Positions 3,841-22,738 of a stretch of DNA of 64,000 bases are shown piece after piece. This DNA comes from an uncultured Ruminococcus sp. Lineage in GTDB: Bacteria; Bacillota; Clostridia; Lachnospirales; Lachnospiraceae. The notes beneath the pieces were generated by a model that was not told the DNA's origin, made no database searches, and saw only the letters and a list, made by a program, of their open reading frames with translations. The stretch covers positions 35,651-99,650 of the forward strand of contig USFD01000001.1 of NCBI GenBank assembly GCA_900553885.1, written 5' to 3'. A program made the position numbers and the translations under genes. The first letter of the stretch is position 1. Each line of letters opens with the position of its first letter.

Positions 3841-3890
3841 TCTAAAGAGAACTTTTTAATATTGTCTAAAGAGAACTTTTTAATATTGTC
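3841..3890. repeat. Perfect 24-bp tandem duplication (taaagagaactttttaatattgtc, 2 copies) overlapping the 3' end of the Abi gene
   Basis: This was read directly from the sequence. Copy 2 encodes the last 8 codons (MTILKSSL*) of the Abi_2 gene, and copy 1 lies immediately downstream. Confidence 0.8.
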
Positions 3891-4989: not shown

Positions 4990-5260
4990 TCATATGCGAT
5001 TTTTGATAGATTGGAGTTTTTCACTCCAAGGTGCCAGCTCTGGCAGTTGTTCATCGGTCATATCTTTACATGACCGGTGCTCCAGCAGAAATTTAAGATA
5101 TCCATAAATATTCAGCCCATGTGCTTTTGCCATTCCAACCATTGTGCAGACTACCGCACTGGCATTCTCTCCGGTCACGACCAGAAAGCCTCTAGAACAG
5201 GTTTTTCCTTTTCGAGACGAAGCTATTTCCGCTTTTCATAATCACCGGGATACTTTTTTG
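4990..5260 (-). pseudogene. IS66-family transposase C-terminal remnant
   Basis: The translated segment ...GFLVVTGENASAVVCTMVGMAKAHGLNIYGYLKFLLEHRSCKDMTDEQLPELAPWSEK matches the conserved IS66 C-terminus (GAKASA..YSLIETAKANGLNPYEYLK...LLPWN). The catalytic domain upstream is missing. Confidence 0.5.
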
Positions 5261-5619: not shown

Positions 5620-6738
5620 TTACTTCCTCAAAATACCAATCAACGCCTCTGCAATCGCTAAGGCTTCTTCTTCTGTATTCTCCACACCGAAGGAAATGCG
5701 TATCGTGCCTTTTGCATATTCTTCCGGCACATGAATCGCCTCTATCACATGAGAGACACGAGCATTTACTGAATCGCATGCGGAGCCAGTGGAAATACAG
5801 ATTCCCTTCAGGTCCAACCGATGAAGTAGCATCTCGCCATCAGCTCCTTTGATGGAAATATTTACATTTCCAGGAAGATGATAGCTATTGCCGTTTCTTC
5901 TGTACTCAATGCCCGCAAAAGTCAACGTATCCAGAAGAATTTTCTCTAGCTTTCGGAGTCTCTGTGAGGACGCTTCCATGCGATTGCAGTTCTTTTTCAG
6001 AGCTACAGCCATAGCTGCGATTGCCGCCACGTTCTCTGTGCCGCCACGTCTACCGTGCTCCTGTGAGCCGCCATCAGCATAAGGATGAAGCTCTACGCCT
6101 TTACGGATATACAGAAATCCGCTGCCCTTCATTCCGTTAAATTTATGTGCCGACGCAGAGAGCATATCAACGTCAAGTTCTTTCACATTAATTGGAATAT
6201 GACCAACCGCCTGCACTGCGTCGGTATGGAACAGTGTACCATGTTCATGCGCAATTCTGGTAAGCTCCTTGATCGGTTCGATTGTCCCAATCTCGTTATT
6301 AGCCAGCATAACAGAGACGAGTCTCGTATTGTCCGTTATATACTGTGAAAGCTTTTCCGGCTGCACAATACCATCATCCGTCACCGGCAGGTAAGTTACT
6401 GGATAGCCGAGCAGCTCGATTGCCGCGCAAGTATTCAATACAGCATGGTGCTCAATCTTGGATGTAATGATTGTTCGCATTTTTGCGTCGGGAAATACTG
6501 AACTCTTAATCGCCCAGTTGTTACTCTCGGTACCGCCAGAGGTAAAATAGATTTCGTCCGGCTCCGCTCCTATGCACGCAGCAATAGTTTCACGAGCCTC
6601 GGAGATTGCCTTCTTGGCCGGTTTGGCGAAGAAATACGGCTGTGAAGCATTACCATATTCCCCAGTTAAAAAGGGCATAGCTGTTTCCAACGCATCTGTA
6701 TCTAATTTCGTTGTCGCTGCATTATCAGCATAAATCAC
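5620..6738 (-). CDS. Cysteine desulfurase (NifS/IscS class V aminotransferase), last gene of the BREX-like operon
   Basis: The protein starts with the classic MIYADNAATTKLD motif (GTG start, RBS aggtgg). The PLP-lysine region SASAHKFNGMKGSGFLY and a C-terminal active-site Cys region ISTGSACDS are present. The start lies 16 nt from the stop of the upstream Zn-ribbon gene. Confidence 0.85.
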   Translation of the reverse strand: MIYADNAATTKLDTDALETAMPFLTGEYGNASQPYFFAKPAKKAISEARETIAACIGAEPDEIYFTSGGTESNNWAIKSSVFPDAKMRTIITSKIEHHAVLNTCAAIELLGYPVTYLPVTDDGIVQPEKLSQYITDNTRLVSVMLANNEIGTIEPIKELTRIAHEHGTLFHTDAVQAVGHIPINVKELDVDMLSASAHKFNGMKGSGFLYIRKGVELHPYADGGSQEHGRRGGTENVAAIAAMAVALKKNCNRMEASSQRLRKLEKILLDTLTFAGIEYRRNGNSYHLPGNVNISIKGADGEMLLHRLDLKGICISTGSACDSVNARVSHVIEAIHVPEEYAKGTIRISFGVENTEEEALAIAEALIGILRK

Positions 6739-6753
6739 AAAATTCCACCTGCC

Positions 6754-6963
6754 TCACTCAAAAAGTTTGCACCCCTCATTTTTGAACTCTTCGATTTTGT
6801 CCTGAAGTTCCTCAGTGGTCACTTCCAATTGCTCAGCTAAACAAGATATACAATAAAAATTCTTAGAACTTTTCCCCATCAGTTTTTTTGTAAGTCCTAT
6901 TTCGTTTTTACTGATATTCTTTTTTCCGCAAATATAACAGTCTGCCATCTTAATCATTGTCAT
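6754..6963 (-). CDS. Small Zn-ribbon protein (CxxC...CxxC), unknown function
   Basis: The sequence contains CYICGKKN...YCISCLAEQ...EGCKLFE. The start was set at an internal ATG to remove the 65-nt overlap with brxL. The longest ORF runs to 7014. Confidence 0.35.
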   Translation of the reverse strand: MTMIKMADCYICGKKNISKNEIGLTKKLMGKSSKNFYCISCLAEQLEVTTEELQDKIEEFKNEGCKLFE

Positions 6964-8464
6964 AATCTCTGCACACAGTAAATGCAGGTATGTCCTTTCC
7001 TTTATACTCATCATCCAGCAAGCCTAACTGATATTTGATGGTATCTCTCATTTTTCTTGCCCTGTCCAAACAGTATCGCTTGAAATCGTCAGATGAGATA
7101 TCACTAGGTTGCCTTACGTTAGGGAATAGAAGTTTTAAATACGCCGTAGAAATTCTTTTTACTGCCTCCGTATCTCTTGTGTCTGCGCCGTCAGGAACAA
7201 CAACAAGCTCATCAACTATTGCTCTATAGCTCATATCATCTCTTAGTTCATGCATGATTGAACAGAAGTATTCCGAGTTTAAAGCCCAACCGGATGCCTT
7301 TAAATCATCGTTCATTCTCGGAATGTTCCAACCTTTTATAAAACCATGAAACCTATCAATAAGTGCAGATTCATGAAAAACTTTTGGAAGCTCCACGAAC
7401 ATGTTTCCATAACCGTCTTCTTCCATAGATGCTTTGCTTATATTTCCACATAAAATCATTCCTGCATAAGCGGTACCCTCGTGATTACCGACAGTATAGA
7501 CACCAGATTCAAGATATCCCTTAAGGGCGGCTCTCATTTCATCAGTATCCGTAAATGAAATCGTCTGAACCTCATCAAGCGTGATGAAATCGTTTCCTGC
7601 CACCAAGCCTTCCATATGACGGTTTTGATCATAAAACATTTTTGCACGGCTCATAATTCCGCCGCTTGACAGCCAGCCAAAACGACTTACTCGTCCGAAC
7701 AAATAAGATTTCCCTGTCCCCTTAGGCGCTAATTCTATTAAATTCAATCTTTTTTCTATGAAAGGAAGCAGACGTGTAAGCATGGTGAGCTTCTTTTCTT
7801 CATCGCCGTTATACCCGTCAGCATTATAGTCCACTGCGCCCAAAATAATATCGATCCATTCCTTCGTGGAGAATTCTTTTCTTGCATCCTTAAAATAATC
7901 AATGTCTATTCTGTATGGACAAAACGGTTTAAAAGAAAGCAACTTAATCTTTCCTTTTTTGCCGGCTTTAGATCTGTCCCGATTTTTATTAACGTTGAAT
8001 GACCATTCGTGCTCATACTCGTCAGGGGACTGATATCCCAGTTCGACCATTCCCCACGTCTCATATTCATGAATAAGATCGGCCTTGCATTCATTCCAGA
8101 CATTTTCATCAATCAGTGTGTCTTTAAACGAAAGTCCAAAATCAGGCAGTGAGAATGAAACCTTTCCTGTCTTTATATCTATGTCGATAGATATTTTGGC
8201 TAAAAATCTTACAGTCTCCTGTTCTATGACCACACGATTTTTTATTGAATTCCAATCTTCTTTTTTAGGAAGATAGGTATGTACAAATTTTAAGACCCTA
8301 TCCACATCAAAAGTGCCATTCTCATCTTCAAATTTCCGAAGGATCCAATCCCTCATAAAAGATGGAAGGCTAAGTGCTGAAAAGACGTTACTCTGCTTTT
8401 TGAGATCTTTGTACACAACCATCTCATCAAAGCAATTCTTTAATTTTTCCTCAGTAATAGTCAC
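6950..8464 (-). CDS. brxL: BrxL-like Lon-related AAA+ ATPase (BREX)
   Basis: The N-terminal region (YKDLKKQSNVFSALSLPSFMRDWILRKF) and the segments ELAPKGTGKSYLF...SSGG....MFYDQ...IDRFHGFIKGWNIPRM match my recollection of BrxL (Lon_rel) family motifs. It starts with GTG behind an aggagg RBS. At 504 aa it is shorter than typical BrxL proteins, and I could not find a clear Lon protease Ser-Lys motif. Confidence 0.55.
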   Translation of the reverse strand: MTITEEKLKNCFDEMVVYKDLKKQSNVFSALSLPSFMRDWILRKFEDENGTFDVDRVLKFVHTYLPKKEDWNSIKNRVVIEQETVRFLAKISIDIDIKTGKVSFSLPDFGLSFKDTLIDENVWNECKADLIHEYETWGMVELGYQSPDEYEHEWSFNVNKNRDRSKAGKKGKIKLLSFKPFCPYRIDIDYFKDARKEFSTKEWIDIILGAVDYNADGYNGDEEKKLTMLTRLLPFIEKRLNLIELAPKGTGKSYLFGRVSRFGWLSSGGIMSRAKMFYDQNRHMEGLVAGNDFITLDEVQTISFTDTDEMRAALKGYLESGVYTVGNHEGTAYAGMILCGNISKASMEEDGYGNMFVELPKVFHESALIDRFHGFIKGWNIPRMNDDLKASGWALNSEYFCSIMHELRDDMSYRAIVDELVVVPDGADTRDTEAVKRISTAYLKLLFPNVRQPSDISSDDFKRYCLDRARKMRDTIKYQLGLLDDEYKGKDIPAFTVCRDYDND

Positions 8465-8482
8465 TTAGATTCCTCCTACTCA

Positions 8483-10762
8483 TCAAAACAAATCATCGAA
8501 ATCGTCATTCATAGTTGCACTCTTACCGGCTGCTTCGATTTCTATATGACCGGCGAGATCATTGCCCAGATAAACATCTGCTGAATACGTTCCCGATCTT
8601 TTAATATCTGGAATATCAACTTTGAAATGATTATCATCAATACATTCGGACTGATATCTCTTATTTTCATACCCTATGGTCAGAGTATCTCTTATAGTTT
8701 TATTTACATATAAGGTTACAGTAATTCCCTTTTTATAATCAGCCTTAATCTTTTCTCCATCAACGACTGTCACAACAAAGCTGCTATCATTCAGCGAAAA
8801 GGTAATGATCGGTACAATAACCTCTTCCAGCGAAGCTCCTCCGTGTACTTCTACATTGGCCTCTCGGCTACCCTTAAATCTTCCATAATCAGCAAGAACT
8901 ATATATCCTCGATCTTCCTCATTTATTGCAAATGGAAGATCACATCCAGAAAAGAATTTACAACACCTTCCTGAATGTTTACCCTTTGTATCGGTTTCGT
9001 ATTTTTCTTTCTTATTACGCAACACCGCAAGACGTGATGCTCCGTGATCACTTGCAATCACAACGCGTTCGTACTTTCTAAGGCCTAATGTCGTAGCGAC
9101 ATCACTAACTGCTTTTTCAATGATTTCCAACTCCCTTGCCAAATGAATAGGATAAGGATTTTTCGAACTATAGTAATATCCACCTTTATCTTTATGTTTT
9201 ATTTCATCAAGTTCCTCCTCTTTCGGATGCCTTAAATCTTCTGGCCAGTTATTAAAGAAGGCATTGTTTTCACAAGTAATAGTGGGCAGTTCAGCCCTGC
9301 CGATTTCTACAGAAATTTTCAGCCCGCGTCTTCTTGCAAGTTCCGCAATGAATCCAAGATATTCTACTCCAAGTGCATCAATCCAAAAAAGCTGAGTAGA
9401 CCCGTCATTCTTTTCTTTAACAAGCTCATCTCTCTTCGGAAGACGATTATATATTCTCTCAAGCGCAAGTTTGTCTACTTCTTTCAAAAAATCATCGGTT
9501 AGACTATTTCTAAGCTTGAGTTCCTTATATTTTTCAAAATATGTTGTTATTCTAGCAGCAAATCCAGAATCAAGCCCATTCCCATTAAACGGATATCTGT
9601 TGGTATAAGCAGCAAGATCTGGGTATAACTCCCCAAGATTCTCAGGCAGGCCATTATTGGCAATCCAAATGATAACCTCCTGCTTTTCAACCAAAGTATT
9701 ATCCGTTAATTTATAAACACTTTCACCGACGTTTACACGATTGTCATTTACAAAGGGAGCTATTTCTGCTTCGGGATAATGTGATAACAGTCTTTTCCGT
9801 TCTTTATAAAATTGCTGATACTCAGCATTTGTATGAGAAACGGCAATAATAGCACATAGTATTCCTTTCTTGAAACCGGAAAGTCCTGTACTGTTTTTTA
9901 AAACATATCCCAAGTATTTACCTTCATATGCTTTGGCATTCATCACCAAATAGATGTAAAACAACCAACTATTATACTCCTCTCCATATAGTAAACCGTA
10001 AAAATCAGCATCCTGAAAATCAGTAAATCCATATTCTTCAAACAACTTGTTAGTTTGAAAATTCATATTCCGAAGATCTGTAAGCAACTTCTCCCACATA
10101 TCTTCTGTCCCGTACTCCTTAGGGACTTCATCCATGTTTATATTTTTGGCAATCGCTTCATAAGAATCTCTTACACGCTGAATAGGAAGCAAGGAATCTC
10201 TAAATTCCATAATAGTGTTCGCAGACACTTCATTATTGGCCCCGCCTTCCAGAACTTTCAGAAGATTTTTTACTCCATTTATTTTATATATTCCAAGTCC
10301 AGGATCAGAAAATTTAAAGCACAGTGATGTAGCAAGTTCATCACTAAATGCAACCCTTCCGCTTTCAACCAACCTTTTATCATTCTTTACAAGTAATCTT
10401 ACCTGAGGCTCTACACATCTCAGCAACAAAACGACCTGAGCATTTCCCAGATTGTAATCTTTCAGTTCGGTCAAAACATCGTTTACTCTTTCGTTGCCGC
10501 ATAAAGCAAGGTATTCCCCCAAACCGAGCATCACAATATTATTGTAAGAAAATGAAACATCCGCTGTTTCAAGTTTTTCTCTCATCGCATCTAAATCAGG
10601 AAGTTTGTCGACATTTTTGCAGCATTCACTTATACGCAAAAAACTGATCGCTCTGCTTTTTAAGTTATCTATTACTTCTCCGTATTCCTTATCTCCGACT
10701 ACCATGTAAAAAGGCTTATGGATTTTTGAAGCAAAATAGTCTTCTATTGGCTTCATATTCAT
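8483..10762 (-). CDS. pglZ: PglZ-domain protein (alkaline-phosphatase superfamily) of BREX
   Basis: The motifs WIDALGVEYLGFI and VVIASDHGAS fit the PglZ phosphatase-like core. The length (759 aa) and its position between brxC and brxL also fit. Confidence 0.65.
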   Translation of the reverse strand: MNMKPIEDYFASKIHKPFYMVVGDKEYGEVIDNLKSRAISFLRISECCKNVDKLPDLDAMREKLETADVSFSYNNIVMLGLGEYLALCGNERVNDVLTELKDYNLGNAQVVLLLRCVEPQVRLLVKNDKRLVESGRVAFSDELATSLCFKFSDPGLGIYKINGVKNLLKVLEGGANNEVSANTIMEFRDSLLPIQRVRDSYEAIAKNINMDEVPKEYGTEDMWEKLLTDLRNMNFQTNKLFEEYGFTDFQDADFYGLLYGEEYNSWLFYIYLVMNAKAYEGKYLGYVLKNSTGLSGFKKGILCAIIAVSHTNAEYQQFYKERKRLLSHYPEAEIAPFVNDNRVNVGESVYKLTDNTLVEKQEVIIWIANNGLPENLGELYPDLAAYTNRYPFNGNGLDSGFAARITTYFEKYKELKLRNSLTDDFLKEVDKLALERIYNRLPKRDELVKEKNDGSTQLFWIDALGVEYLGFIAELARRRGLKISVEIGRAELPTITCENNAFFNNWPEDLRHPKEEELDEIKHKDKGGYYYSSKNPYPIHLARELEIIEKAVSDVATTLGLRKYERVVIASDHGASRLAVLRNKKEKYETDTKGKHSGRCCKFFSGCDLPFAINEEDRGYIVLADYGRFKGSREANVEVHGGASLEEVIVPIITFSLNDSSFVVTVVDGEKIKADYKKGITVTLYVNKTIRDTLTIGYENKRYQSECIDDNHFKVDIPDIKRSGTYSADVYLGNDLAGHIEIEAAGKSATMNDDFDDLF

Positions 10763-10767
10763 GAGGA

Positions 10768-13700
10768 TTATTCACCTCCATTAATAATTTCTATTCCGAG
10801 TGTCATACTCTCTTTTACCATGGAAATAAGATGTTCCTTTAACTCATCACTACCCATAGAATTAATCTTAGCAATGGCCTTATCACTGCCTCCGGCATTA
10901 TATTCCGCCTTTGCAAGTTCGCAGATCTTCTCACGAATGCGAGGATGTGAATCCCATTCATATGCATCTATAGGCAGAGTATCCAAAGAATCCCTGACTT
11001 TTTCAATGTCGGTCAGGAGCTTTCTATAAGTTCCCAATATACTGCTAAATGCTTCATCGACTTCCCGCTTGTCATTCAGACTATCAAAAAACTGTGCGCC
11101 GTTCAAAAATTCCAATGCTTCCTTGAACTCTTTCTCGCTCGCAGTACCTCTGTTGAGAACTTCAAAAGTCTTTCTGGCCTGATCATATTCCCCCTTTGGA
11201 ATTATCGATAAAATCGGCGTCCTATTTATAGCAGACCAGGCAGCCGGAGTTTTAGTACCGGTCTTATCTCTCCATAACTTGAAGAGCTGTGTCTTTGTCT
11301 GATTCTTACGGAATTCATCAGCGACTCTCTTTACTATTGCATTACTCTCTGTCCTTGACTTTTTGAAAATATCGGCAAGCTCTGCCGTCCTTAACCGAGC
11401 CACATCGTCATCATTCAGGCCTTCCAGATAAGGAGAATAAATCCTCATGAATGCAGGAATTTCATTTGAAAGATAACTTTCAAGTACAGCCGAATTACTT
11501 ACTATACTATCTGTATAGGTTTTCATCTGCTCCGGCAGGATATCAGCGTCAAGGTAAATCTTTTTCAAGAATTCAAACACATCTTTCAGTTGGGGATATT
11601 CCTCCTGAAGAGCTTCACATGAGCACATTACGAATTTCAGTTTTTCCTGCCATTCCTTATCTGCATCATTCTTGGAATGAACTGTAATATGCAGAATATC
11701 ATTAGTTGCCTTTACATATGTATAGTCAATTATAAGTTCCTTGATCCTTTCTTCGCCTGTATCAAGATTCCAAAGACTGGAATATTCAACTGAGAACAGC
11801 CTTCCGATATCTTTTATAATGTTATCATCGCTTGCTCCGATATTATCAGCCAAATTTCGAAGCTTCCTACCATCAAAATGTTCGATAAACTTCAGCATAC
11901 CTTTGCGGCAGTTTTCCGGAGTCAGTAAATCATGAAGGGAACCTACTATTTTATCGTTTTTCAAAGATTCAGCGCCAATCTCTTTTGCAATCTGATGCGC
12001 ATCTTCGCCCTCTTTCTGTACGAGGAGTATATATTTGGAGACAATATCATAAACTCCGTCAGCATCTACATACCTTAAGCACCATACCGGCAGTCCCAGA
12101 TTCTGCATTCTGGACTTCACAGACGACGATGCCTTTGCGGGAGATGAGAGCGTATTTTCCGGAATACCCCATGCTTTTTCAGTAGTGGCATAGAAGGCAC
12201 GTTCCTCCTGCGTCATTTTTACTATGTAGGTAGAGGTTCCCTTACTTATGCAGTTGCCAATAATCTCTGCAAGTTTGTTCGAATCCATCTCTCCGTTGGC
12301 ACCTTTGGGGTCAATATAGCGATATTTTGTCAGGCTATATTCCTTGAGAAGAAATCCCATAAGGAATGCCGTCAAATTGCACTGTGCATATCCAAATTTA
12401 GATACAAGATGCTCGTACACATCAAGAACTGACACTGACTGATTATTGTCAAACAGATCTTTTATCAAAACTTCAACAGAGGACTTTATGACCGAAATTC
12501 CTATACCAGAGGTCTCGGGCTTTGTCCAATAATTATCAACATTCCATACACCTGCTAACGTGCTCTTTTCCGCCCCAGCCATTACTCCGCTTGTCTTTTG
12601 GTTAATGCCGCACAAAGCAGCTGCCTTTGCATTTGATAACTTGAATTGCGATTCCGTAAGCCCCTTTCCAAAATCAGGCACATATCTGAATTTTTTAAGA
12701 ACAACCGTCTGCAGAACGTCTGCCACAGCTGAACCACCCAATACTTTCTCCCCATCAGGATAATCCTTGCTCCATATCGTAAAAATTCCGTTATAGATGC
12801 GATTCTTCCATGTTATGGTTAGAACCTGCTCCGCTTTCTTGGCGTTATCTCTTGCAGACAGATTGTTATTATGTTGATAGTAATTCGCCATTGCGGAGTA
12901 CTCGACATAAGAATTAAAATCGTCATCACCCAGCGGACTTGCTGTAGCATCGATAAATAGAATGTTGTTATAATCTCCGCTTGCCACCGCTGCCTTAATC
13001 TTGTCACGCAGCGCGACGCCTTCTGCTGCGTCTTTCGCAAACGCTAAGACAGCATTAAAGTGCCAATTTTCCTGACGATTTTTTAATGTATTGATTTTTT
13101 TTGTAATATCATTTATCGTCACCGTAGTTATCTGGCCGCTCGTGTAGTCTTCGGCAAAACGTAACCTAAGCGGCGGATTCAGAGAAAGACAGGTTCCAAG
13201 TTTTCCGTCACTGACGAGGCTAGCAGCTGAACTGCTGTTTCTAATCAACTCCTTGTATTCATTTATCTTTACCTGATCTCCGGCAAGTACCGCCACACCG
13301 TAGGCAAATTTATTATTACCGATAGGTGTCTGAACGAGAACTCCACTCTTGCAGAGCTGCTTTGCCAGATTTTTGCATTTAGTATCCATTCCGGAAGTTA
13401 TGCCTTCAAAAACATAACTAATGTTCTGTTCCGTCGGCTTAAGTACGTCAAGCTCACCACCCAAGCGTTTATCAATCGCCTGCATGATAAGGATAGCTTT
13501 CAGGACACGTTTTTCATCATCCCTGAGATTTTTCTGCTGAGGATAAGCGTCAAGGATCATTCTGATGTCAGGAGAAAGGTTATCTTTGCCCTTTTCATAG
13601 AAGAAGTCCCAGAGCATATCAATAGTCAAAAATGGGTAATCGTCATCCGGTCCATAGTTGGATATGAACCACTGAAAAGCCTGCGAATCATCTTTTACCT

Positions 13701-14907
13701 TAATAAAATCAAACATACTACGCTGATTGGATGCAAACGCAGACGCAATGTTTTTAAGGACAAGCGCGGCCATAGGATGAAGCGGCATAATCTTCTTTAT
13801 AACTTTCTGATCAGTGATATTCGCCGCTTTCATCACAGCGTTTCTTGAATCGCTGAGACGACTGTTGAGCGTGTTAGCGCAGTTATTCCAAGTATCTGCT
13901 GCTGCCGATTTAACCTTGAAAGCATCGCCTATGAGATCAAACGCAATATTGTCTGGGAGCGTGATCTCAACCTTATCAAAACGTTGCTGAACAACCTTCC
14001 ATGATTCATCCTGATTATCAATAATACTGCCCGCCTGATGGGTAACGATGACAAGATAGAACGGACTCTCCTGGCAAAGAGCGACGACTTTCTGAAACTC
14101 ATCAAGCGAATACTTGTTGTTTTCAAAGAATTTGCTGAATTCATCCCAGAAAAATACAATCTTTATATGATTCTGGTCAATTACATCCTTGAGCCATACT
14201 TTCAGCCTGTCGGCATCAAGATTCATAGCTGTAATGCCTTCTTTGTCAGCAAGTTCAAAAATGTTTGACATGAGATCCTTTATGTCGCCGGATTTCTTCA
14301 ATGTATTGAGAACCTCATCTGCATTGGACTGAGAGAACTTTGCAATCCATTCTGGCTTCTGGAGAAGATCATTAAAGAATCTTTTATGTGCCGGGTCTTC
14401 TATCCAAGAGATAACATTCTCCTTGAATGTATTTTCACCCATATATGTAACACGATCACTCTTTTCCAAAGCTTCACGTACACTCTCCTGAATTTCGGCA
14501 AAGAACTTCTGCGGAGTGGTAATTCCGCCTGTCGCATATCTGTAAACTGTCACAATACCCCTGTCTCTGTGGCCAAGAAGCTTTGAGAGAAGGTCGCTCT
14601 CCTTTTTCAGCGCGTCATAGCTATTCCAGTAAGCTTTCAGCTCATCTTCGGGGACTTCCAGAATACTCTTCAACGCAAAAGCACACTGTGATTTTCCGGT
14701 TCCGTAAGCACCGTGAATCCATACGGAACGGTTCGTGCTTCCTCCCAGCATATTTTCTGTTGCACGCAGTAATTTGATAAATGTCGCGTGGGGGTAGGTG
14801 GTATCCCACCTTGCGCCTCCCGCTATCGCGGAATCATCAATACACGGGAAATACTTTTCATCGATATCAAAGAACTGATCGTATTTTCCTCTTCCAAATC
14901 CAGCCAT
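10768..14907 (-). CDS. brxC: BrxC/PglY-like P-loop ATPase (BREX)
   Basis: An N-terminal Walker A motif GAYGTGKSQCAFAL and a Walker B-like IVFFWDEF are present. The protein is 1379 aa, with a gaggagg RBS, and follows the type-4 BREX gene order. Confidence 0.6.
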   Translation of the reverse strand: MAGFGRGKYDQFFDIDEKYFPCIDDSAIAGGARWDTTYPHATFIKLLRATENMLGGSTNRSVWIHGAYGTGKSQCAFALKSILEVPEDELKAYWNSYDALKKESDLLSKLLGHRDRGIVTVYRYATGGITTPQKFFAEIQESVREALEKSDRVTYMGENTFKENVISWIEDPAHKRFFNDLLQKPEWIAKFSQSNADEVLNTLKKSGDIKDLMSNIFELADKEGITAMNLDADRLKVWLKDVIDQNHIKIVFFWDEFSKFFENNKYSLDEFQKVVALCQESPFYLVIVTHQAGSIIDNQDESWKVVQQRFDKVEITLPDNIAFDLIGDAFKVKSAAADTWNNCANTLNSRLSDSRNAVMKAANITDQKVIKKIMPLHPMAALVLKNIASAFASNQRSMFDFIKVKDDSQAFQWFISNYGPDDDYPFLTIDMLWDFFYEKGKDNLSPDIRMILDAYPQQKNLRDDEKRVLKAILIMQAIDKRLGGELDVLKPTEQNISYVFEGITSGMDTKCKNLAKQLCKSGVLVQTPIGNNKFAYGVAVLAGDQVKINEYKELIRNSSSAASLVSDGKLGTCLSLNPPLRLRFAEDYTSGQITTVTINDITKKINTLKNRQENWHFNAVLAFAKDAAEGVALRDKIKAAVASGDYNNILFIDATASPLGDDDFNSYVEYSAMANYYQHNNNLSARDNAKKAEQVLTITWKNRIYNGIFTIWSKDYPDGEKVLGGSAVADVLQTVVLKKFRYVPDFGKGLTESQFKLSNAKAAALCGINQKTSGVMAGAEKSTLAGVWNVDNYWTKPETSGIGISVIKSSVEVLIKDLFDNNQSVSVLDVYEHLVSKFGYAQCNLTAFLMGFLLKEYSLTKYRYIDPKGANGEMDSNKLAEIIGNCISKGTSTYIVKMTQEERAFYATTEKAWGIPENTLSSPAKASSSVKSRMQNLGLPVWCLRYVDADGVYDIVSKYILLVQKEGEDAHQIAKEIGAESLKNDKIVGSLHDLLTPENCRKGMLKFIEHFDGRKLRNLADNIGASDDNIIKDIGRLFSVEYSSLWNLDTGEERIKELIIDYTYVKATNDILHITVHSKNDADKEWQEKLKFVMCSCEALQEEYPQLKDVFEFLKKIYLDADILPEQMKTYTDSIVSNSAVLESYLSNEIPAFMRIYSPYLEGLNDDDVARLRTAELADIFKKSRTESNAIVKRVADEFRKNQTKTQLFKLWRDKTGTKTPAAWSAINRTPILSIIPKGEYDQARKTFEVLNRGTASEKEFKEALEFLNGAQFFDSLNDKREVDEAFSSILGTYRKLLTDIEKVRDSLDTLPIDAYEWDSHPRIREKICELAKAEYNAGGSDKAIAKINSMGSDELKEHLISMVKESMTLGIEIINGGE

Positions 14908-14909
14908 GA

Positions 14910-17216
14910 TTAATCCTCCTCAAACAGACGTAGGACATCCTTCGATGTCTTATCCGTCAATGATATTTTATCCAGGTCATTTGTAAACGTAGCGTTTATG
15001 AAATCCGGGTACTTAGCTGTCAACCCCATCAAAATTGACTTGGTATCCTCATATTCGAGTCCGAAGAGTCGAGTTGGGCTGATACCATCACGATCTATAT
15101 CATCGTTCATCATCCATGCTAGAGTAAATTCCTTGTAGTCGTTGCACGCCTCCGCAAATTTGTAGAGAGCATAAAGAACAACGCGGTTGTCAGAAATAAT
15201 ACATTTAGTTCTACAAATAGAATTAATCTGTCTACCGTTCTCTTCAACACACCCCCAATTCAACGTAGTTCCCATAGGTAATTCACAAAATCTCTTAAAG
15301 GCATTTATGATCGACGTAGCATCCGCCTTACTTACTCCCTCAGCCATTAAGAGATCCCTTACTTTATTTCGCGGATAAAAAATTCCAACATCCAAATTAT
15401 TTACATACCATGCAAACTGAGGATTTTCAACAAAATTAACTATCATAATTCCCCAAGATGTTTCGCTTTCCCAGCCAAGTTTTGAAACAATATCATAAAG
15501 TGCCGTTGTTTTATTATCTTTACCTATAATTCCAGATTCTCTAAAAAATCTTTTAACTTTTGGCTCTTGATTTTTTTTATTCAACGTATTGTTCTCCCAA
15601 TACTCATTTCCAAGTTCAAAAAACTCTCTGATCCAATCTACCTTTGGCGCATGATTTGCAAAGGAATTTAAACTCTTATCTTTCATGTTTCCTCCTGTTG
15701 TAGTTCTTAAAGAATGAAATAATAAACATCCATCATCTATTTCATGACATTGTCCACAATGAACACAACCATCAATTTTTAAGCCATGATCAAAGGTAAT
15801 ACAACCGTTTCGGCAATTCGTCTCACAAACACGACATCCTGTACAATATGCAGCCTTATGGAATACCTGCTTAAACTTCTTTATTTCTTGCGGATATTTC
15901 TTTAATAATGACGCATCACATGTAACAATATATCCTTCTAATGTTTGCTCAAAGGAAAATTCGAACGGAATTTGTCCAAGTGTTTTAATCCATTCTCTCC
16001 AATCAGTTGATGGATTCTTCACCGTAATAATAAGTTTTCGATCCTTTACTTCGTCTTTATACTTTTGCTTATTAATCGTAAGATCTCTTCCGTTTTTTCG
16101 AGCATTCCATCCACCCCTGGATACATATGTGTTAAGTGAATTTTCATTATCCTTATCTCTTGCATCCATCGATTTTATCAGATCTACATACTTTGAAACT
16201 TCAGAGGGATATGCACAATATTGAATATAATCTCCTTTATTGCCACCCATAGGACAGAAAAGACACCCCGCTCTAGAGTTTCCCTTTTTATAGGCTTCAT
16301 TGACATATATACCCTTTGCAAATATATACAGCCATACCTCAGCGGACGTCCACTCTAAAATCGCATTAAAACTATATTGCCCCTTCTGCTTTTTCCCATA
16401 ATTTTCGTACTGGTATTCGCTTCTGGCTACACTTTCATGCTTGCGGACACCAACAAAGTCCATTCCAACGTAATCATCTTTGCCGGTAATCTCTCTCAAC
16501 TTCAGCGTCTGTGGTGCACTCTTATGAACGCTGCAGCACCAGCGAAGAACCCTTGCAGGAGGGCCGAAAATCTTCCAGGATTCATGTGGATCAAAGTGGG
16601 ATCGAGCCACATAAAACGGCGTTCCATCCTCTTCACAAGCCTGCTTTTCTTTTTCAACTGCAACATAGGTATCCGGAAATTCCATTCCTGTATCGCCGAA
16701 GACAACAACAAAGCTCCCCTTAGGCAATGCCCGTTTCACCAGATCTAAGAGTACCGCACTGTCCTTGCCTCCCGAAAAAGCCACATGGAATATATCGAGC
16801 TTGTTCTTATACTTCTCGTATATTGCCACAATCTTTTTGACCGTAGTATTCTCAATGATATCAAGCAGATCAAGATTCTTATTAACCATTCCCTCTATAT
16901 CAACAGGGCGTAACATACCCCCGTCTGGCTCCGGCTGAACAGGATTGCCCTCACTGTCCTTGGGGATTATTATCTCCGGTGCTTCATACAGGTTACCGCC
17001 TTTAAGTTTAGCCACCTGCTTTCCTCTATACCAGTATTGAACAGACTCCGCCCACATATAGGGAGCATCCGATTGCTTGTCATATTTCCAGTATTTATCA
17101 AATCCAAGCAGATCCAACTCCGGTGCATAGACCGGTCTTGGCTCCTTAGAAAATACTGTAGGCGTGGAATTCAGAAGGATCCCGCCTGTTTCTTCATCAT
17201 AAGTATATGAATACAA
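14910..17216 (-). CDS. brxP: BrxP-like PAPS-reductase family PP-loop ATP pyrophosphatase with a C-terminal Cys-rich (Fe-S-like) region
   Basis: The PP-loop motif SGGKDS appears in HVAFSGGKDSAVLLD. A Cys cluster follows: CTGCRVCETNCRNGC....CVHCGQCHEIDDGC. The start is TTG, 2 nt after the upstream stop, behind an aaaggag RBS. It is homologous to DndC/SspD-type proteins. Confidence 0.65.
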   Translation of the reverse strand: MYSYTYDEETGGILLNSTPTVFSKEPRPVYAPELDLLGFDKYWKYDKQSDAPYMWAESVQYWYRGKQVAKLKGGNLYEAPEIIIPKDSEGNPVQPEPDGGMLRPVDIEGMVNKNLDLLDIIENTTVKKIVAIYEKYKNKLDIFHVAFSGGKDSAVLLDLVKRALPKGSFVVVFGDTGMEFPDTYVAVEKEKQACEEDGTPFYVARSHFDPHESWKIFGPPARVLRWCCSVHKSAPQTLKLREITGKDDYVGMDFVGVRKHESVARSEYQYENYGKKQKGQYSFNAILEWTSAEVWLYIFAKGIYVNEAYKKGNSRAGCLFCPMGGNKGDYIQYCAYPSEVSKYVDLIKSMDARDKDNENSLNTYVSRGGWNARKNGRDLTINKQKYKDEVKDRKLIITVKNPSTDWREWIKTLGQIPFEFSFEQTLEGYIVTCDASLLKKYPQEIKKFKQVFHKAAYCTGCRVCETNCRNGCITFDHGLKIDGCVHCGQCHEIDDGCLLFHSLRTTTGGNMKDKSLNSFANHAPKVDWIREFFELGNEYWENNTLNKKNQEPKVKRFFRESGIIGKDNKTTALYDIVSKLGWESETSWGIMIVNFVENPQFAWYVNNLDVGIFYPRNKVRDLLMAEGVSKADATSIINAFKRFCELPMGTTLNWGCVEENGRQINSICRTKCIISDNRVVLYALYKFAEACNDYKEFTLAWMMNDDIDRDGISPTRLFGLEYEDTKSILMGLTAKYPDFINATFTNDLDKISLTDKTSKDVLRLFEED

Positions 17217-17218
17217 GC

Positions 17219-19603
17219 TTACTTTCTCCTTTCTCGCAGCTGAGCAGCTTCGTTTATCAGCAAATCAATATCTTTGTATTTCTTTCTTTCCATATATCCA
17301 GCCTCTGTCAGAAAACCAAAGACCTCGCTCTGCTGCAAATCTCTACCAGAGCGTGCAACTGCTTGCGTCATAATATCATGATAGCTAAGCGTACATGACT
17401 TAATCACTATTGCCCCTGAATTAGATGAATTTGCGCGACGCGTCTCATACTTATATTTTTTGCTGAACCGGCGGCAATAGCTTTCAAGCAAATAAAGGTT
17501 CCATCCATATCCACAGAAGGGGAATGTACTAAAAGTCGTTATTTCCCGCATTCCGATAAAGTCATCGGTGATCACATAATCAAGCGCCGCATCTATGCGG
17601 TCTATATCAAACTGAATAAATCTATCCGCAATAAAATCATCCTTATCAACGCGAACCATGACAGCATTAGCTGCCTCGATTATATCTGGTCGCCTGATAG
17701 TACCTGTAACCCGTTTAGCTATACCTTCAAGGCGATCATAAGTGCATTTATCCTGTTTCCGGCAAAACTCAATTACAGCAGTGTATGTATCTTTACTGGC
17801 TCCTTTACGCGTCAGTACTCTAGCATTTCTCTCGAAACGATCCTCAACCAATTTGTAAAAGCATGTATAAAGTGCTGCCTCCGAAATTTCCGGATTTGCT
17901 TCAACTAAATGGTCAAATGGGATCTCGTCCAATGAAACCACTCCATGTTTCTCACATTGCTCATCCGCGTAATCAGAAAGGCTTTCTATCTCAGCTTCGT
18001 CCGCTTCAAACCAATCTGCCTGCATATAAGTTTCCGCAGAATTCCAGACGAATGCTGGCTGTTTGGCCAGTGTGAACTTTATCTTATCCATCGGAATCAG
18101 TGGCAGTTTCATAGAGAGTTCATCAAAAGTCTGCAATGTACTGCTGCCCCAAACACGTATAATATCATTTTTTATTAGTTCAAATTCTGTTTGGCGCTCT
18201 GAAGGTAAAGCAAAATAATTACTCCTGTACCGAAACTGCGGCATAAGATACTTTAATATTGCCTTAAGCATATCTGCCGATATGATCTTCGCCTCAGAAT
18301 ATTCATAGAACTTAAAATCATAAAGCGAATCATAATAAACAATATTGACTCCTTGATTCTTATAGTCATTAATCTCATTAACGATGGACTTCATACTGTC
18401 ATCCGAGATAAGATAAACTTTCCCATCAAACTCAAACCCCATCTCTCTGATGGCATTAAGCAACACGTCATCACTCAGTGAACAATCCAAATCGTTAACT
18501 TCCTCATAGGATGCTCTAAATCTGTACAGTTCTACACCATCGTCCTTAAAGCCATACTCAAAACGTGGGAGCTTCAAAGTTTCTCTTATTCGATCTAACT
18601 CGTCCTTGCTTACTTTTTCTTGCGGGGAAACCTTTTCACCTTTTGACTTTTGAAACTTTCTACCTCCTTTCAAGCCCAAGAACTCAAGATATTTTGCTAA
18701 TGCAGCAGTTAACCTATTATGCTGCGTTTCATTATAGACTCGAAAATCATTATCCAAAGTCAAGAGTGCTATATTGCTTTCTAATTTATCTAGAGATTCC
18801 TCGCCATAAATTCTACCTGTACCAATATTATGTTCCGCACATAAAGAATCACATCTGTTAATTGCTGATGCATAGCTTCTTCCTGTAGGCGCAGCAAGAC
18901 CTTTATTCTCTGTCAGCCAAAGATAAAAGTCAGACTTATTTATTCCTGAACTTGGTTTATCTTTCTCTTCTGTCTCTTCATCAGGATACTTATGCACAAG
19001 AAATTCTTTATACTTGATTAATCCGCTAATCATGGAGTATCTCCGACTCCTTGAATGGATTCTTATTCCTTTACTGCTCCTGATATTATCTATCAAGAGA
19101 GATATTTCATCAGAATCATCCATTTCAAGGATTCGATTATGAATGACCCCCTTTTTCTTCAACAATATCTCCAAGACCCCCAATTCTTCGATAACCGCTG
19201 AAGAAGCTTTTTCAGACAAAGTATGCTCAAGCCATTCTTGAAACGCGGATTTATTGTTTGTGGAAGCTTCTGACACAATCCTCGCCTCCTTTAATAATTC
19301 AGCAAATGCATCTTGATCATTTTGATATTTATTAACTATATCGAAGTACCATCCACGTGTAACATGCAGACCTGACTTACCACCAGTATACGCATATTCG
19401 AGGCAGTTCATCTGAAGCGAAATACCATTCTCATTACGAAATTTCTCGTCGATTTTAATTCCACGTGATTCAGCTTCTTTTCTAAGCCTTTTTGATACTT
19501 CTGATATTGCCTCTTTCCTTTCAGTTTTTCCATTCAGTACGTCTATCAGTGCTTGGAGCAAGACAGCTTGTTCATGCTCATTCCAGACAATTCTGGTTGA
19601 CAT
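17219..19603 (-). CDS. Large hypothetical protein (794 aa), first structural gene of the BREX-like operon
   Basis: This is a clean ORF with an RBS (gaaggaagg). No P-loop or nuclease motifs were recognised, and no family could be assigned. It is translationally coupled to brxP. Confidence 0.5.
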   Translation of the reverse strand: MSTRIVWNEHEQAVLLQALIDVLNGKTERKEAISEVSKRLRKEAESRGIKIDEKFRNENGISLQMNCLEYAYTGGKSGLHVTRGWYFDIVNKYQNDQDAFAELLKEARIVSEASTNNKSAFQEWLEHTLSEKASSAVIEELGVLEILLKKKGVIHNRILEMDDSDEISLLIDNIRSSKGIRIHSRSRRYSMISGLIKYKEFLVHKYPDEETEEKDKPSSGINKSDFYLWLTENKGLAAPTGRSYASAINRCDSLCAEHNIGTGRIYGEESLDKLESNIALLTLDNDFRVYNETQHNRLTAALAKYLEFLGLKGGRKFQKSKGEKVSPQEKVSKDELDRIRETLKLPRFEYGFKDDGVELYRFRASYEEVNDLDCSLSDDVLLNAIREMGFEFDGKVYLISDDSMKSIVNEINDYKNQGVNIVYYDSLYDFKFYEYSEAKIISADMLKAILKYLMPQFRYRSNYFALPSERQTEFELIKNDIIRVWGSSTLQTFDELSMKLPLIPMDKIKFTLAKQPAFVWNSAETYMQADWFEADEAEIESLSDYADEQCEKHGVVSLDEIPFDHLVEANPEISEAALYTCFYKLVEDRFERNARVLTRKGASKDTYTAVIEFCRKQDKCTYDRLEGIAKRVTGTIRRPDIIEAANAVMVRVDKDDFIADRFIQFDIDRIDAALDYVITDDFIGMREITTFSTFPFCGYGWNLYLLESYCRRFSKKYKYETRRANSSNSGAIVIKSCTLSYHDIMTQAVARSGRDLQQSEVFGFLTEAGYMERKKYKDIDLLINEAAQLRERRK

Positions 19604-19654
19604 ATTGTAATGTTCCTTCCTTCACTACAGTATATAAAATGATATATCCCATAA

Positions 19655-19918
19655 TCAGGACTCTGTACTTTTGTCTTTTGTAATATTCGGCACACGTTCC
19701 ATAATGTCCTCGACATTGCAGTCAAGGGCTTCGCATATTCTAAGCAACACGTCTGTCGTGACATTCTCGCATCTGCCCATCTTAGCGATCGATGCGGCGC
19801 TAACGTCACTTTGCTTTTGCAATTCCTGTTTCTGGATCCCCCTGTCGATCAGGAGTTTCCATAAACGGTTGTAATTAAAATGCGTTGCTGTTTCTTTTTT
19901 AATTTTCTGCTCTGCCAT
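19655..19918 (-). CDS. XRE-family HTH regulator heading the BREX-like operon
   Basis: The start MAEQKIKKE... sits behind a ggag RBS. The HTH signature LWKLLIDRGIQKQELQKQSDVSAASIAKMGRCENVTTDVLLRICEALDCNVEDIM is present. A 52-bp gap separates it from the next gene. Confidence 0.6.
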   Translation of the reverse strand: MAEQKIKKETATHFNYNRLWKLLIDRGIQKQELQKQSDVSAASIAKMGRCENVTTDVLLRICEALDCNVEDIMERVPNITKDKSTES

Positions 19919-20639
19919 TTTCAGACTCCGTTTCTTTATTTCAGGTGCGACCAAACAGTTCATTGCCATCCAGTGAAAGTTCAAGAGCGCAATGTCCTAT
20001 CATAGTCTTCTTTGTTTCCGCATCGTATGTATCCAGCCGGTCAAAAGCTAGAAATACCTACTTGCCTGACTGTTCCTGTGCTTCGTATGCCCTGATGATC
20101 TCAACCATGATCTTCTTCTATATGCAGCATTTATATGTCCTATATCACGTAGGGAGCGGCGTCAGCTTAAGATTTACCGGGTCGAGCGTAATAACACCTC
20201 TATACTGTGCGCCGGTTCCGCCGTTATTCGGCGTTTCAAAAGTATACTTGTTCAGCTTCTCCATGCAGAAAAGCAGCAGAAAACACCGGCAAAACGGTGG
20301 CAAATATTTTTAAAGCACGATTTTTTACAATGTTCTTGTGCTTAAGGGTTCCCTAGTCAACGGAAATGCTACAAATTTCGCAGGGTACCCCGGCACGGCA
20401 CAGAAATCCCAAGATATTGTACCACAAGGTCACTTAAAAATCTATTCTATTTAACGATTTTATAAGCAATCGCTTAAGTAATAACGAAAGAGAATAAATT
20501 TTTAAGCACTGTTTCCAGAGACTCGCTTCCCTTAGCTAAACTTCCCATAATTCCAGCATATACTATGCCGGCAGCAGAGATATGCTGTAACCAGAGGAGA
20601 ATGGAACATCAAAATAAAAATGATCAGTTGGAGTAATAG

Positions 20640-21000
20640 ATGGAGATTACACGGCTACGGTTTGGGATGATTGCGCCGGTAATCCAGGGAACCTATCTAA
20701 ATGAATCCATCATGGCCTACTGCCGGAGGATGTCGCCCCCGATGCAGTTCCCGGATGGACGGACTGTAAAATATAATCCCAAAACGATCGGGAAACGGGT
20801 CTCTCTTTACCGGAATAGCGGGATTGACGCCTTGACACCGAAAACGCACTCGAATCTGAGGAAGACTCAGGTACTCACAGAGGGATACAATCGATGAGAT
20901 ATATCGAATCAAGCTGAAATATCCGAAACTGAACGCAACACCAATCCACGCCAGGCTAGTACAGGAAAGCCTAATCCCTGCAACGGTTTCCGCGGAAACT
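20640..21000 (+). pseudogene. Frameshifted N-terminal fragment of a Mu/IS481-like DDE transposase
   Basis: The ORF MEITRLRFGMIAPVIQGTYLNE...RTVKYNPKTIGKRVSLYRNSGIDALTPK continues in another frame as DTIDEIYRIKLKYPKLNATPIHARLVQESLIP...*. No DDE domain follows. Confidence 0.45.
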
Positions 21001-21330
21001 GTTTGATTTCCGCCAATACGGTCTTATCTTCTTCCGTCAGCCTAACTTGGGTGGTACCTTGGGTAGCTTGGGTAGTTTTTTCAGCACCTTGGGGGATATC
21101 CTCCAGCGCATCCTCTGTATTGCGATAAAAATTGATGCGAAATCCGATCTCCATATCGCGGAACTCCGACTCACGCAGTCCATATTCCCTCATGGCTTCC
21201 AGCAGCTTCGAAATACCGCTATCTCATGCCTCAATCAAATTCATATAGGAGAATGCATAAGCAAGCGCAGGGTTTCGAATCTTGGAATATCCCTCTTTCA
21301 TCTTGTCCAGCGTCACGCCAGACATAAGAC
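20909..21330 (-). pseudogene. Remnant of a RecG-C-terminal-like (HATPase_c_4 / AlbA_2 family) regulator gene
   Basis: The segment ...KLLEAMREYGLRESEFRDMEIGFRINFYRNT...AEKTTQATQGTTQ... matches the characteristic C-terminal region of these proteins, including the TTQ repeat. It is interrupted by an in-frame stop. Confidence 0.35.
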
Positions 21331-21370
21331 CGTCAGGCGAGATGCTTTCCAACCTCCCACGGTCATCCCA

Positions 21371-21414
21371 CTACACCATTTACTACACCATTTCCGCAAA
21401 AATCTACACCATTT
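21371..21414. repeat. Three copies of ctacaccattt within 44 bp
   Basis: This was read directly from the sequence. The copies lie inside decayed non-coding DNA. Confidence 0.5.
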
Positions 21415-21766
21415 GACGCTCCCAGACAAAAAGGCAGAACCCGCAAAAACCTTGTAAAATAAGGCTTTACGGGCTCTGACGCCACAGGACAAAACCACCC
21501 GCTCCACGGCAAGAGGTGAGTGCTAATTTTTTAATTTTGTTATACTCCCCAGGACTACCCACCAATTTTCTATGTATTGATGCAACATTCCCGCTATAAA
21601 AGATATGTCCGTTACATGTTTTCCTTCTAAAAATATATACAGCATACCTTTCCTTATCCAGCCCCTATTTCCATTACAGTATTCCCCCGTAAAACTCGCT
21701 GTATCCTTACTAAATTCTCCTTCACTTCCACTCGTAGATGCAAAAAAGGATCTCCTTTCATATAGA

Positions 21767-22738
21767 TTATCCGCAGTATTGTCTATATGCTTCGATTAAA
21801 ACCCGCTGAATTTCTTCCCTAAACCTCTTCGGCCCCATCACTTCACATTGATCTATATGCTCTAAAACCCATAACTTCATTTCTGATGGCACACCCATAA
21901 TCTTGACTGCGATTTTAGTCCCGTCGTTTCGTATAACATCAGCATCTTTTCCGAAAGTCTCCGCTACATCCTGCCATAAATCCAGGCCACACTCTATTTC
22001 GAATTTTTCTTTTTTCTCTCCATTCTGAAAAATAAATTTCTCCGCATACTGACCGGGATTTAAGCCTCCGAAGATCATATCAACCCCTCTTTCCAGTATT
22101 GCAATATCTTTTAACAGATCGATACGAAAATGTTCCAGTTGCTCTATCCCTTCTCTTCTGCCAAGAATGTAATAATTTCCTTCTGCCCACAGAGTAACAT
22201 ACGGGCTCAACACAATCGGACTGTCCTGTCTTTCCGTCAGCTCGTGATCCAGCCCATATTCCATCATTTTCACGCTCACTTTACACCCCTGGTTAATCGC
22301 AACATTGAGTGTGTCTATATTATAGAACAGCTGTTTATTCAGTATTTTCTTCTCTGATTTTACAAATACGGTTTTCTGGAGCATTCTTCCCTGAAAAATA
22401 CTCTGAGTATCTGTCAGTTTTTTAATGATGGTTTTCCCTGTTTTCTCATTTATCATATCGGAAGCAGCCACAGCATCACAGAGTAGCCTTATTTCTGACA
22501 GTTCAAATTCTCTGTCAATCAGATAATACCCCTCCCGATTTTCCTGATATCCTTCTATTTCAATCCCCATACTACGAAGAGCGTCAATATTACGATAGAC
22601 TGCCCTGCGCTCCATATCAATATCATATACTTTTTTCAGCTTTTCCCGTATTTTTTCTGTTGACAGAATATGATTTTCATCCGTATATCTTTTTAAGATC
22701 TCATATACACATAATATAGTTGCCTTTTGTGCGATCAT
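21767..22738 (-). CDS. WYL-domain transcriptional regulator (wHTH-WYL-WCX architecture; BrxR/CapW/PafBC-like)
   Basis: The N-terminal wHTH (ILCVYEILKRYTDENHILSTEKIREKL...RRAVYRNIDALRSMGIEIE) and a central WYL-like region are present. At 323 aa it is typical of this family. It is divergent from the PolC-like gene. Confidence 0.65.
   Translation of the reverse strand: MIAQKATILCVYEILKRYTDENHILSTEKIREKLKKVYDIDMERRAVYRNIDALRSMGIEIEGYQENREGYYLIDREFELSEIRLLCDAVAASDMINEKTGKTIIKKLTDTQSIFQGRMLQKTVFVKSEKKILNKQLFYNIDTLNVAINQGCKVSVKMMEYGLDHELTERQDSPIVLSPYVTLWAEGNYYILGRREGIEQLEHFRIDLLKDIAILERGVDMIFGGLNPGQYAEKFIFQNGEKKEKFEIECGLDLWQDVAETFGKDADVIRNDGTKIAVKIMGVPSEMKLWVLEHIDQCEVMGPKRFREEIQRVLIEAYRQYCG

Follow-up and report, generated by a model that had tools for sequence, protein, structure and literature searches.

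A predicted phosphorothioate-type (type 4) BREX operon with its own cysteine desulfurase in an uncultured Ruminococcus sp.

A stretch of 64,000 nucleotides (nt) from an uncultured Ruminococcus sp. of the Lachnospiraceae (assembly GCA_900553885.1, contig USFD01000001.1, forward-strand positions 35,651 to 99,650; the whole stretch is hereafter called the window) carries an operon of the bacteriophage exclusion (BREX) type near its left end. We consider it very probable that this locus is a complete phosphorothioate (PT)-type (type 4) BREX defence system, carried by a mobile or defence island of low GC, in which self DNA would be marked by sulfur. The operon consists of eight open reading frames (ORFs), all on the minus strand and transcribed in the order in which they are listed here, with lengths in amino acids (aa).

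19655..19918, minus strand: helix-turn-helix (HTH) protein of the Cro/C1 type, 87 aa from ATG 19918 (PF13443 HTH_26, E=2.6e-18)
17219..19603, minus strand: lead gene, 794 aa, with a variable helical N-terminus (residues 1-330) and a predicted C-terminal array of about six winged-helix units (residues 333-794)
14910..17216, minus strand: BrxP, 768 aa, PP-loop/PAPS-reductase family (PADLOC PDLC02510, PF01507)
10768..14907, minus strand: BrxC/PglY ATPase (SspC homologue), 1379 aa (PADLOC PDLC02485)
8483..10762, minus strand: type-4 PglZ phosphatase-family protein, 759 aa (NF033445)
6950..8464, minus strand: short BrxL, 504 aa, N-terminal domain and AAA+ ATPase without the Lon protease domain (TIGR02688)
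6754..6948, minus strand: Zn-ribbon protein, 64 aa, with CxxC...CxxC and a C-terminal helix (read from the sequence)
5620..6738, minus strand: group-I (NifS/IscS/DndA-like) pyridoxal phosphate (PLP) cysteine desulfurase, 372 aa (PF00266)

Family assignments and operon structure

The four central proteins had been assigned to BREX families in a sequence-only reading of this DNA. Searches with profile hidden Markov models confirmed these assignments, as all four proteins passed curated or dedicated models, and the motifs quoted in that reading were each present in the translations. BrxP matched PADLOC PDLC02510 with 852.9 bits over residues 1-765 of its 768 aa and PF01507 at E=2.8e-27 (residues 145-322); it contains AFSGGKDS and a cysteine-rich stretch, CxxCxxCxxxC...CxxCxxC, forming an eight-cysteine ferredoxin-like region. 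BrxC matched PDLC02485 over its full length (1545.6 bits, residues 8-1376), carries the Walker A motif GAYGTGKS, and matched SspC profiles partially, with at most 83 bits. PglZ scored 543.5 bits against NF033445, the model named 'BREX-4 system phosphatase PglZ' (cut-off 140), and 679 bits against PADLOC PDLC02554, and it also matched DUF7864, DUF7863 and DUF7862. Its motifs WIDALG and SDHGAS are present, and the metal-site residues D462, D572, H573 and H640 were invariant across 18 homologues. BrxL, which contains ELAPKGTGKSYLF, scored 389.1 bits against TIGR02688 (cut-off 329.3) and 735 bits against PADLOC PDLC02505, a profile of 482 positions, and matched PF13337 (E=1.7e-110) and PF20442 (E=2.6e-30); its domains are BrxL_N and BrxL_ATPase.

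No methyltransferase family was matched by the eight operon products or by the flanking ORFs tested, which bore out the claimed absence of a PglX-type methyltransferase. The companion claim, that BrxA and BrxB are missing, held for stand-alone genes only: in type 4 systems BrxP is reported to be fused to a BrxA-like domain, DUF4007, a homology drawn from HHpred and modelling, and PglZ to carry at its N-terminus an inactive STAND domain that resembles BrxB (PMC12839542). The tail of the window BrxP had no match in Pfam or in a profile search of PDB sequences. Among 40 orthologous BrxP C-termini, DUF4007 (PF13182) was the top Pfam family in eight (best E=1.4e-4). The C-terminus of BrxP is predicted to be a DNA-binding, DUF4007-like region. 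With BrxP, BrxC, type-4 PglZ and BrxL present and PglX absent, the locus is by gene content a type 4 BREX, and it is a clean and complete instance of the commonest type 4 BREX architecture.

The operon is tight and translationally coupled. As claimed earlier, the eight genes are co-oriented and no gap from the 794-aa gene to the desulfurase exceeds 18 nt: 2 nt separate the 794-aa gene from brxP, 2 nt brxP from brxC, 5 nt brxC from pglZ, 18 nt pglZ from brxL, and 15 nt the Zn-ribbon gene from the desulfurase gene. The gap between brxL and the Zn-ribbon gene is 1 nt when the latter starts at ATG 6948 (TAAGATG), while its longest ORF overlaps brxL by 65 nt. The HTH gene is separated from the 794-aa gene by 51 nt. 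GGAGG-like Shine-Dalgarno sequences lie within the ends of the upstream genes at the four junctions spanning the 794-aa gene to brxL, in agreement with the earlier description of ribosome-binding sites embedded in upstream stop regions.

The proposed interval and gene set stood, apart from two start codons. The first gene probably starts at ATG 19918, which has GGAG about 7 nt upstream and gives 87 aa, and the 109-aa ORF that begins at a TTG and reaches 19984 appears over-extended. The Zn-ribbon protein was correctly placed at the tail; its length is most likely 64 aa, like that of its relatives, rather than 86 aa. A promoter scan of the operon yielded fewer candidate sites than shuffled sequence did. 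A terminator scan found nothing convincing 3' of the desulfurase gene and a weak hairpin upstream of the operon at 20284-20299, and no convincing inverted repeats that might act as an operator were seen 5' of the HTH gene.

The desulfurase and the predicted sulfur mark

Conservation of the gene order was examined in a survey of related loci. Searching with a profile of type-4 PglZ homologues gave 80 loci on contigs from one genome per species; ORFs were called in these loci and searched with the window proteins, and counts were restricted to loci with enough flanking DNA. The loci came from Lachnospiraceae, Oscillospiraceae, Selenomonas, Desulfobacterota, Synergistota, Spirochaetota, Tannerella, Planctomycetia, Armatimonadota, Methanospirillum, Methanoplasma and others, the nearest being from Lachnospiraceae and Lachnoclostridium, with PglZ identities of 69-70%. 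The order lead gene-BrxP-BrxC-PglZ-BrxL-Zn-ribbon-desulfurase recurred in about 80 species-level loci of Bacillota, Desulfobacterota, Synergistota, Spirochaetota, Bacteroidota, Planctomycetota and methanogens. A Zn-ribbon homologue lay 3' of brxL in 72 of 74 loci, and a cysteine desulfurase within 2.5 kb further on in 53 of 69; in this sample the Zn-ribbon gene is tied more tightly to brxL than to the desulfurase gene. Relative to the window, median identity in the surveyed loci was 34% for the C-terminal module of the lead protein, 42% for PglZ, 51% for BrxC, 58% for BrxP, 58% for the desulfurase, 66% for the Zn-ribbon protein and 73% for BrxL. The Zn-ribbon protein itself matched DUF2197 weakly (E=0.0019).

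The desulfurase matched Aminotran_5 (PF00266) at E=8e-79, as its earlier assignment predicted, and it keeps the SAHK lysine motif and the GSAC cysteine loop. It is about equally near the DndA, SspA and NifS models, scoring 428 bits against DndA and 423 bits against SspA in PADLOC. In NCBIfam its best match is NifS, and it stays under the equivalog cut-offs of NifS (TIGR03402, 444.3 against 530.75), DndA (TIGR03235, 312 against 480) and also IscS. The enzyme could thus be taken for a housekeeping NifS/IscS protein whose gene adjoins the BREX genes by chance, given that NifS is the best match (444 bits) and that no equivalog cut-off, that of DndA included, was passed. We consider this extremely improbable. 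The sequence-only reading had named absence from syntenic relatives as the sign of chance adjacency, and the survey instead found the position 3' of the Zn-ribbon gene kept in 53 of 69 loci across many phyla; because of this synteny, chance adjacency is effectively refuted. The short 15-nt distance to the upstream gene speaks against it as well, as do the next features on the other side, which are an IS66 remnant and then AbiD. No NifU/IscU or other Fe-S assembly gene was matched among the adjacent ORFs tested; neither the equivalog score nor the NifU/nif neighbourhood expected of NifS was found. The published survey described below agrees that the desulfurase belongs with type 4 BREX (PMC12839542).

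The sequence-only reading had proposed sulfur-based marking from the pairing of this desulfurase with BrxP. The proposal is supported by published PT dinucleotides that depend on BrxP, BrxC and a host desulfurase in homologous systems (PMC12914056). Contrary to what had been stated, type 4 BREX is no longer experimentally uncharacterised: synthesis of PT DNA by type 4 BrxP and BrxC was demonstrated by Yuan et al. (bioRxiv June 2024; Nat Commun January 2026), BrxP being effectively an SspD-SspB fusion and BrxC a homologue of SspC (PMC12914056). In their work, deletion of brxC abolished PT, and brxP and brxC, cloned with mcrA, reproduced the native PT pattern in Bacteroides thetaiotaomicron, a SufS-bearing host. 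The genes mcrA, brxZ, brxL and one downstream gene were dispensable for modification, and modification was only partial in the systems studied (PMC12914056). The operon composition had also been called undescribed, a claim overtaken by a survey of 457 type-4 taxa (Nucleic Acids Research 2026; PMC12839542). That survey, published in January 2026, found PAPS reductase in 89%, DUF4007 in 97% and BrxL in 96% of the taxa; the desulfurase was present in 255 of the 457 (56%) and was proposed as a sixth core component, with which a small zinc-finger protein co-occurs. The idea of sulfur marking was therefore correct but not new, having been published and partly validated experimentally. Since PT marking and an operon desulfurase with a zinc-finger partner were already known, little is at stake for the finding as first submitted.

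In the mechanism that we propose, the operon PLP cysteine desulfurase would first draw sulfur off cysteine as a persulfide, as shown in homologous systems. BrxP, with its PP-loop ATP-pyrophosphatase core, its Fe-S-type cysteine cluster and its DUF4007-like tail, would then act with the BrxC ATPase to put the sulfur on a non-bridging backbone oxygen at short motifs in host DNA, again as shown in homologues. PglZ and the short BrxL ATPase would block replication of incoming unmarked DNA, and the 794-aa protein would probably join them as a DNA-recognition or sensor subunit, which is the weakest step of the scheme. Expression would be controlled by the small HTH protein.

The desulfurase might instead serve mainly in the assembly or repair of the BrxP Fe-S cluster, or might have both roles. 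The eight-cysteine region of BrxP fits such a role, as do a weak EFR1 ferredoxin match at residues 433-491 of the window protein and a Fer4_10 match in the BrxP orthologue of one related locus (L004). There is also precedent in DndA, which was described as a NifS-like desulfurase capable of assembling the Fe-S protein DndC (You et al. 2007, as cited in PMC12914056). The Dnd and Ssp models nevertheless give the same desulfurase as the PT sulfur donor, and the two roles are not exclusive; we regard a mainly Fe-S role as somewhat unlikely.

Several points weigh against a complete PT-type system with its own sulfur supply. The PT chemistry, the modified motif and the exclusion of phages are extrapolated to this locus from homologues, and according to Yuan et al. 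the anti-phage activity of variant type-4 systems awaits investigation (PMC12914056). The experimentally studied Bacteroides salyersiae operon has a variant architecture, in which mcrA separates brxP from brxC and the host SufS is used (PMC12914056). Across loci, the similarities of PglZ and BrxC track each other (Spearman rho 0.61), but desulfurase similarity does not track that of PglZ (-0.05), which suggests that the desulfurase is an exchangeable, loosely held module. It was lacking from 16 of the 69 related loci, and because host SufS was also enough in the published reconstitution, the operon desulfurase may be dispensable.

Exchangeability of the desulfurase would fit the view in the literature that housekeeping enzymes can replace it. 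Scores of the surveyed desulfurases against that of the window (loci L006 to L085) fell into two bands, one of about 430-550 bits, mostly from Bacillota, and one of about 330-390 bits from the others. The banding and the lack of correlation with PglZ hint at repeated replacement or recruitment.

The 794-aa lead protein

Only the lead gene may still be undescribed here. As the sequence-only reading had claimed, the 794-aa protein belongs to no recognised family: it had no match in Pfam, NCBIfam or PADLOC models, and its relatives from protein searches were all labelled 'hypothetical'. Six homologues of 22-63% identity were looked up on their contigs; all belong to brx operons and are encoded directly 5' of the PAPS-reductase gene, several of them preceded by a small HTH gene. 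The survey gave the same result on a larger scale, with a homologue immediately 5' of brxP in all 63 loci counted, which belong to a single PglZ clade of at least 38% identity. Searching 1.84 billion representatives (clusters at 50% identity) with a profile returned 3,892 clusters at E<=1e-3. Members of the family are 600-1,860 aa long, and the conserved module is invariably C-terminal.

An AlphaFold2 model of the protein had a mean pLDDT of 84 and a pTM of 0.44, the latter as expected of beads on a string. Helical bundles occupy residues 1-330 of the model, and about six helix-helix-helix-hairpin units occupy residues 333-794. The best Foldseek matches were tandem winged-helix proteins (UFL1, the SelB C-terminus, Dcc1 and ESCRT-II), and no enzymatic fold was found among the Foldseek matches. 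In this model the protein is apparently non-enzymatic and a tandem winged-helix array. Among the 63 orthologues and long relatives, the only N-terminal Pfam modules were DNA-binding ones, namely integrase SAM-like, RNA polymerase alpha C-terminal domain, sigma-70 region 4 and helix-hairpin-helix.

The lead protein is the fastest-evolving protein of the operon, and its N-terminal module is mostly unalignable. Some relatives share about 42% identity in the N-terminal part and only about 23% in the C-terminal part, which indicates module shuffling. The most conserved stretch is residues 691-730, FPFCGYGWNLYLLESYCRRFS, in which P695, W701, L706, E707, S708 and S714 are invariant and C697 and C710 nearly so. 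This stretch, with its two cysteines, may be a surface for binding a partner, a metal site or a site of sulfur relay. We also considered whether the lead gene encodes a detached DUF4007/BrxA/SspB homologue. Alignment of its N- and C-terminal modules with the profile of the BrxP tail by hhalign gave probabilities below 3%, and a profile search of PDB sequences found no match; on sequence grounds this reading was rejected.

The lead gene is a plausible conserved, unnamed component of type 4 BREX. We tentatively propose, as a reading that could about as easily fail as hold, that it represents a large unnamed family and an integral seventh component of this type-4 BREX clade: a non-enzymatic protein of about six winged helices with a shuffled, hypervariable N-terminal DNA-binding region, possibly a DNA reader that senses invader DNA or PT status and couples it to PglZ and BrxL. 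The family was not found in the text of PMC12914056 and PMC12839542 or in the supplementary text; figures and neighbourhood tables lay outside this search, and a prior depiction there is possible.

A different role would be that of a sequence-specificity subunit which chooses the PT motif, rather than one in restriction, sensing or regulation. The multi-winged-helix and apparently non-enzymatic nature of the protein and its translational coupling to brxP across 2 nt would suit such a subunit, and fast evolution with shuffled N-terminal modules is expected of a specificity determinant. In B. thetaiotaomicron, however, brxP, mcrA and brxC alone gave the native dinucleotide pattern, which suggests by analogy that BrxP and BrxC carry the specificity, and we judge the specificity role unlikely. 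We lean towards placing the lead protein on the restriction or sensing side more than on the modification side, because brxP and brxC were all that the published reconstitution required for the native pattern; this assumes that the B. salyersiae system is comparable. A universally linked, fast-diversifying multi-winged-helix protein is a candidate for self/non-self discrimination and for the triggering of PglZ and BrxL in PT-BREX.

Genomic setting and comparison with known systems

The GC content is low around the operon (about 0.36-0.44) and rises to 0.46-0.53 farther along the window; ordinary chromosomal genes such as those for DnaJ and DnaE (DnaE at 46475-49948) come after the low-GC stretch. 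Just downstream of the operon is an AbiD/Abi_2 gene (3866-4912, minus strand; PF07751 3.8e-30, PADLOC AbiD 2.3e-26), and since it adjoins the BREX operon, the region is a multi-system defence island. Between the desulfurase gene and AbiD, a 62-aa ORF (4990-5178, minus strand) appears to be a remnant of an IS66 C-terminal element (PF13817, E=1.6e-6, 28.6 bits, just below the cut-off). The left edge of the window (100-1841, minus strand) encodes a replication initiator of the RepA_N family and an IstB/DnaC-like ATPase; they suggest that the island may be part of an integrated plasmid or of an element resembling an integrative and conjugative element. In one related locus (L004), genes for a type IV secretion system and conjugation lie directly upstream of the brx operon.

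The HTH protein is probably the regulator of the operon. Only a minority of related loci have a small HTH gene (HTH_26, HTH_17 or HTH_3) ahead of the lead gene; because of this and of its varying family, we regard it as accessory rather than core. A second regulator gene, co-oriented with the operon, lies about 1.8 kb upstream:

21767..22738, minus strand: HTH-WYL-WCX regulator (PADLOC WYL 1.3e-13; weak Pfam matches to WCX and HTH_11)

This protein is possibly BrxR-like, and its membership of the system is uncertain. Weak homologues of it are encoded directly 5' of the lead gene in two surveyed loci (L008 and L056). The short ORFs between 19984 and 21767, which have no family match, resemble gene remnants. 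Further along are a 449-aa ORF (22899-24248, plus strand) whose only match, to the DNA_pol3_alpha NTPase domain, is weak and partial (5.5e-5, residues 12-94), a ParE toxin and Phd-YefM antitoxin pair (24613-25198, minus strand), a DUF2971 gene (25305-26186) and a PDDEXK_2 'transposase' gene (26632-27654).

The exact 794-aa sequence was found on 85 public contigs, against five for the exact DnaE sequence, and the exact 794-aa, BrxP and desulfurase sequences recurred on 82-147 contigs. The system evidently travels on mobile elements. With the IS66 remnant, the remnant-like ORFs at 19984-21767, the PDDEXK_2 transposase and the RepA_N and IstB-like genes flanking the operon, the locus might be decaying or silent mobile-element cargo that is no longer functional. 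This is very unlikely, as all eight ORFs were full length when compared with profiles and orthologues, and the recurrence of exact sequences argues for recent spread under selection. As a predicted PT-type BREX with its own sulfur donor, without McrA and on a mobile island, the locus is a convenient candidate for heterologous reconstitution.

Among known systems, the type 4 BREX of PMC12839542 is the closest. Gene content and order match those of the window in BrxP, BrxC, type-4 PglZ, BrxL, the DndA-like desulfurase and the zinc-finger protein. The difference is the 794-aa lead gene, which was not found in the main or supplementary text of that paper (figures and tables were outside the search). 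The brxPCZL system of B. salyersiae DSM 18765 has the four core families in common with the window; there, PT requires BrxC, BrxP and a cysteine desulfurase, and PglZ and BrxL are dispensable for modification (PMC12914056). Unlike it, the operon in the window has no McrA and has its own desulfurase, Zn-ribbon protein, 794-aa lead gene and HTH_26 regulator. A description of the first gene of the B. salyersiae operon is given neither in that paper nor in its preprint.

SspA, SspC and SspD of the SspABCD system have their homologues in the window, respectively the desulfurase, BrxC and BrxP (PADLOC SspA 423 bits, SspC at most 83 bits, SspD 41.6 bits), and SspB, a DUF4007 protein, is the reported counterpart of the BrxP tail (PMC12914056). 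The matches of BrxP and BrxC to the SspD and SspC profiles are, however, partial and far under their Brx scores, and stand-alone SspB, SspE and SspFGH are absent, with PglZ and BrxL in their place. With DndABCDE, the window shares the pairing of a NifS-like desulfurase (DndA) with a PP-loop PAPS-reductase enzyme (DndC). BrxP scored only 30 bits against the DndC model TIGR03183 (cut-off 290.4) and 31 bits against PADLOC DndC, in the PP-loop core only, and no operon or flanking product matched the PADLOC or NCBIfam models of DndB, DndD or DndE. The ATPase of the window is of the BrxC/SspC type, whereas that of Dnd, DndD, is of the ABC/SMC type.

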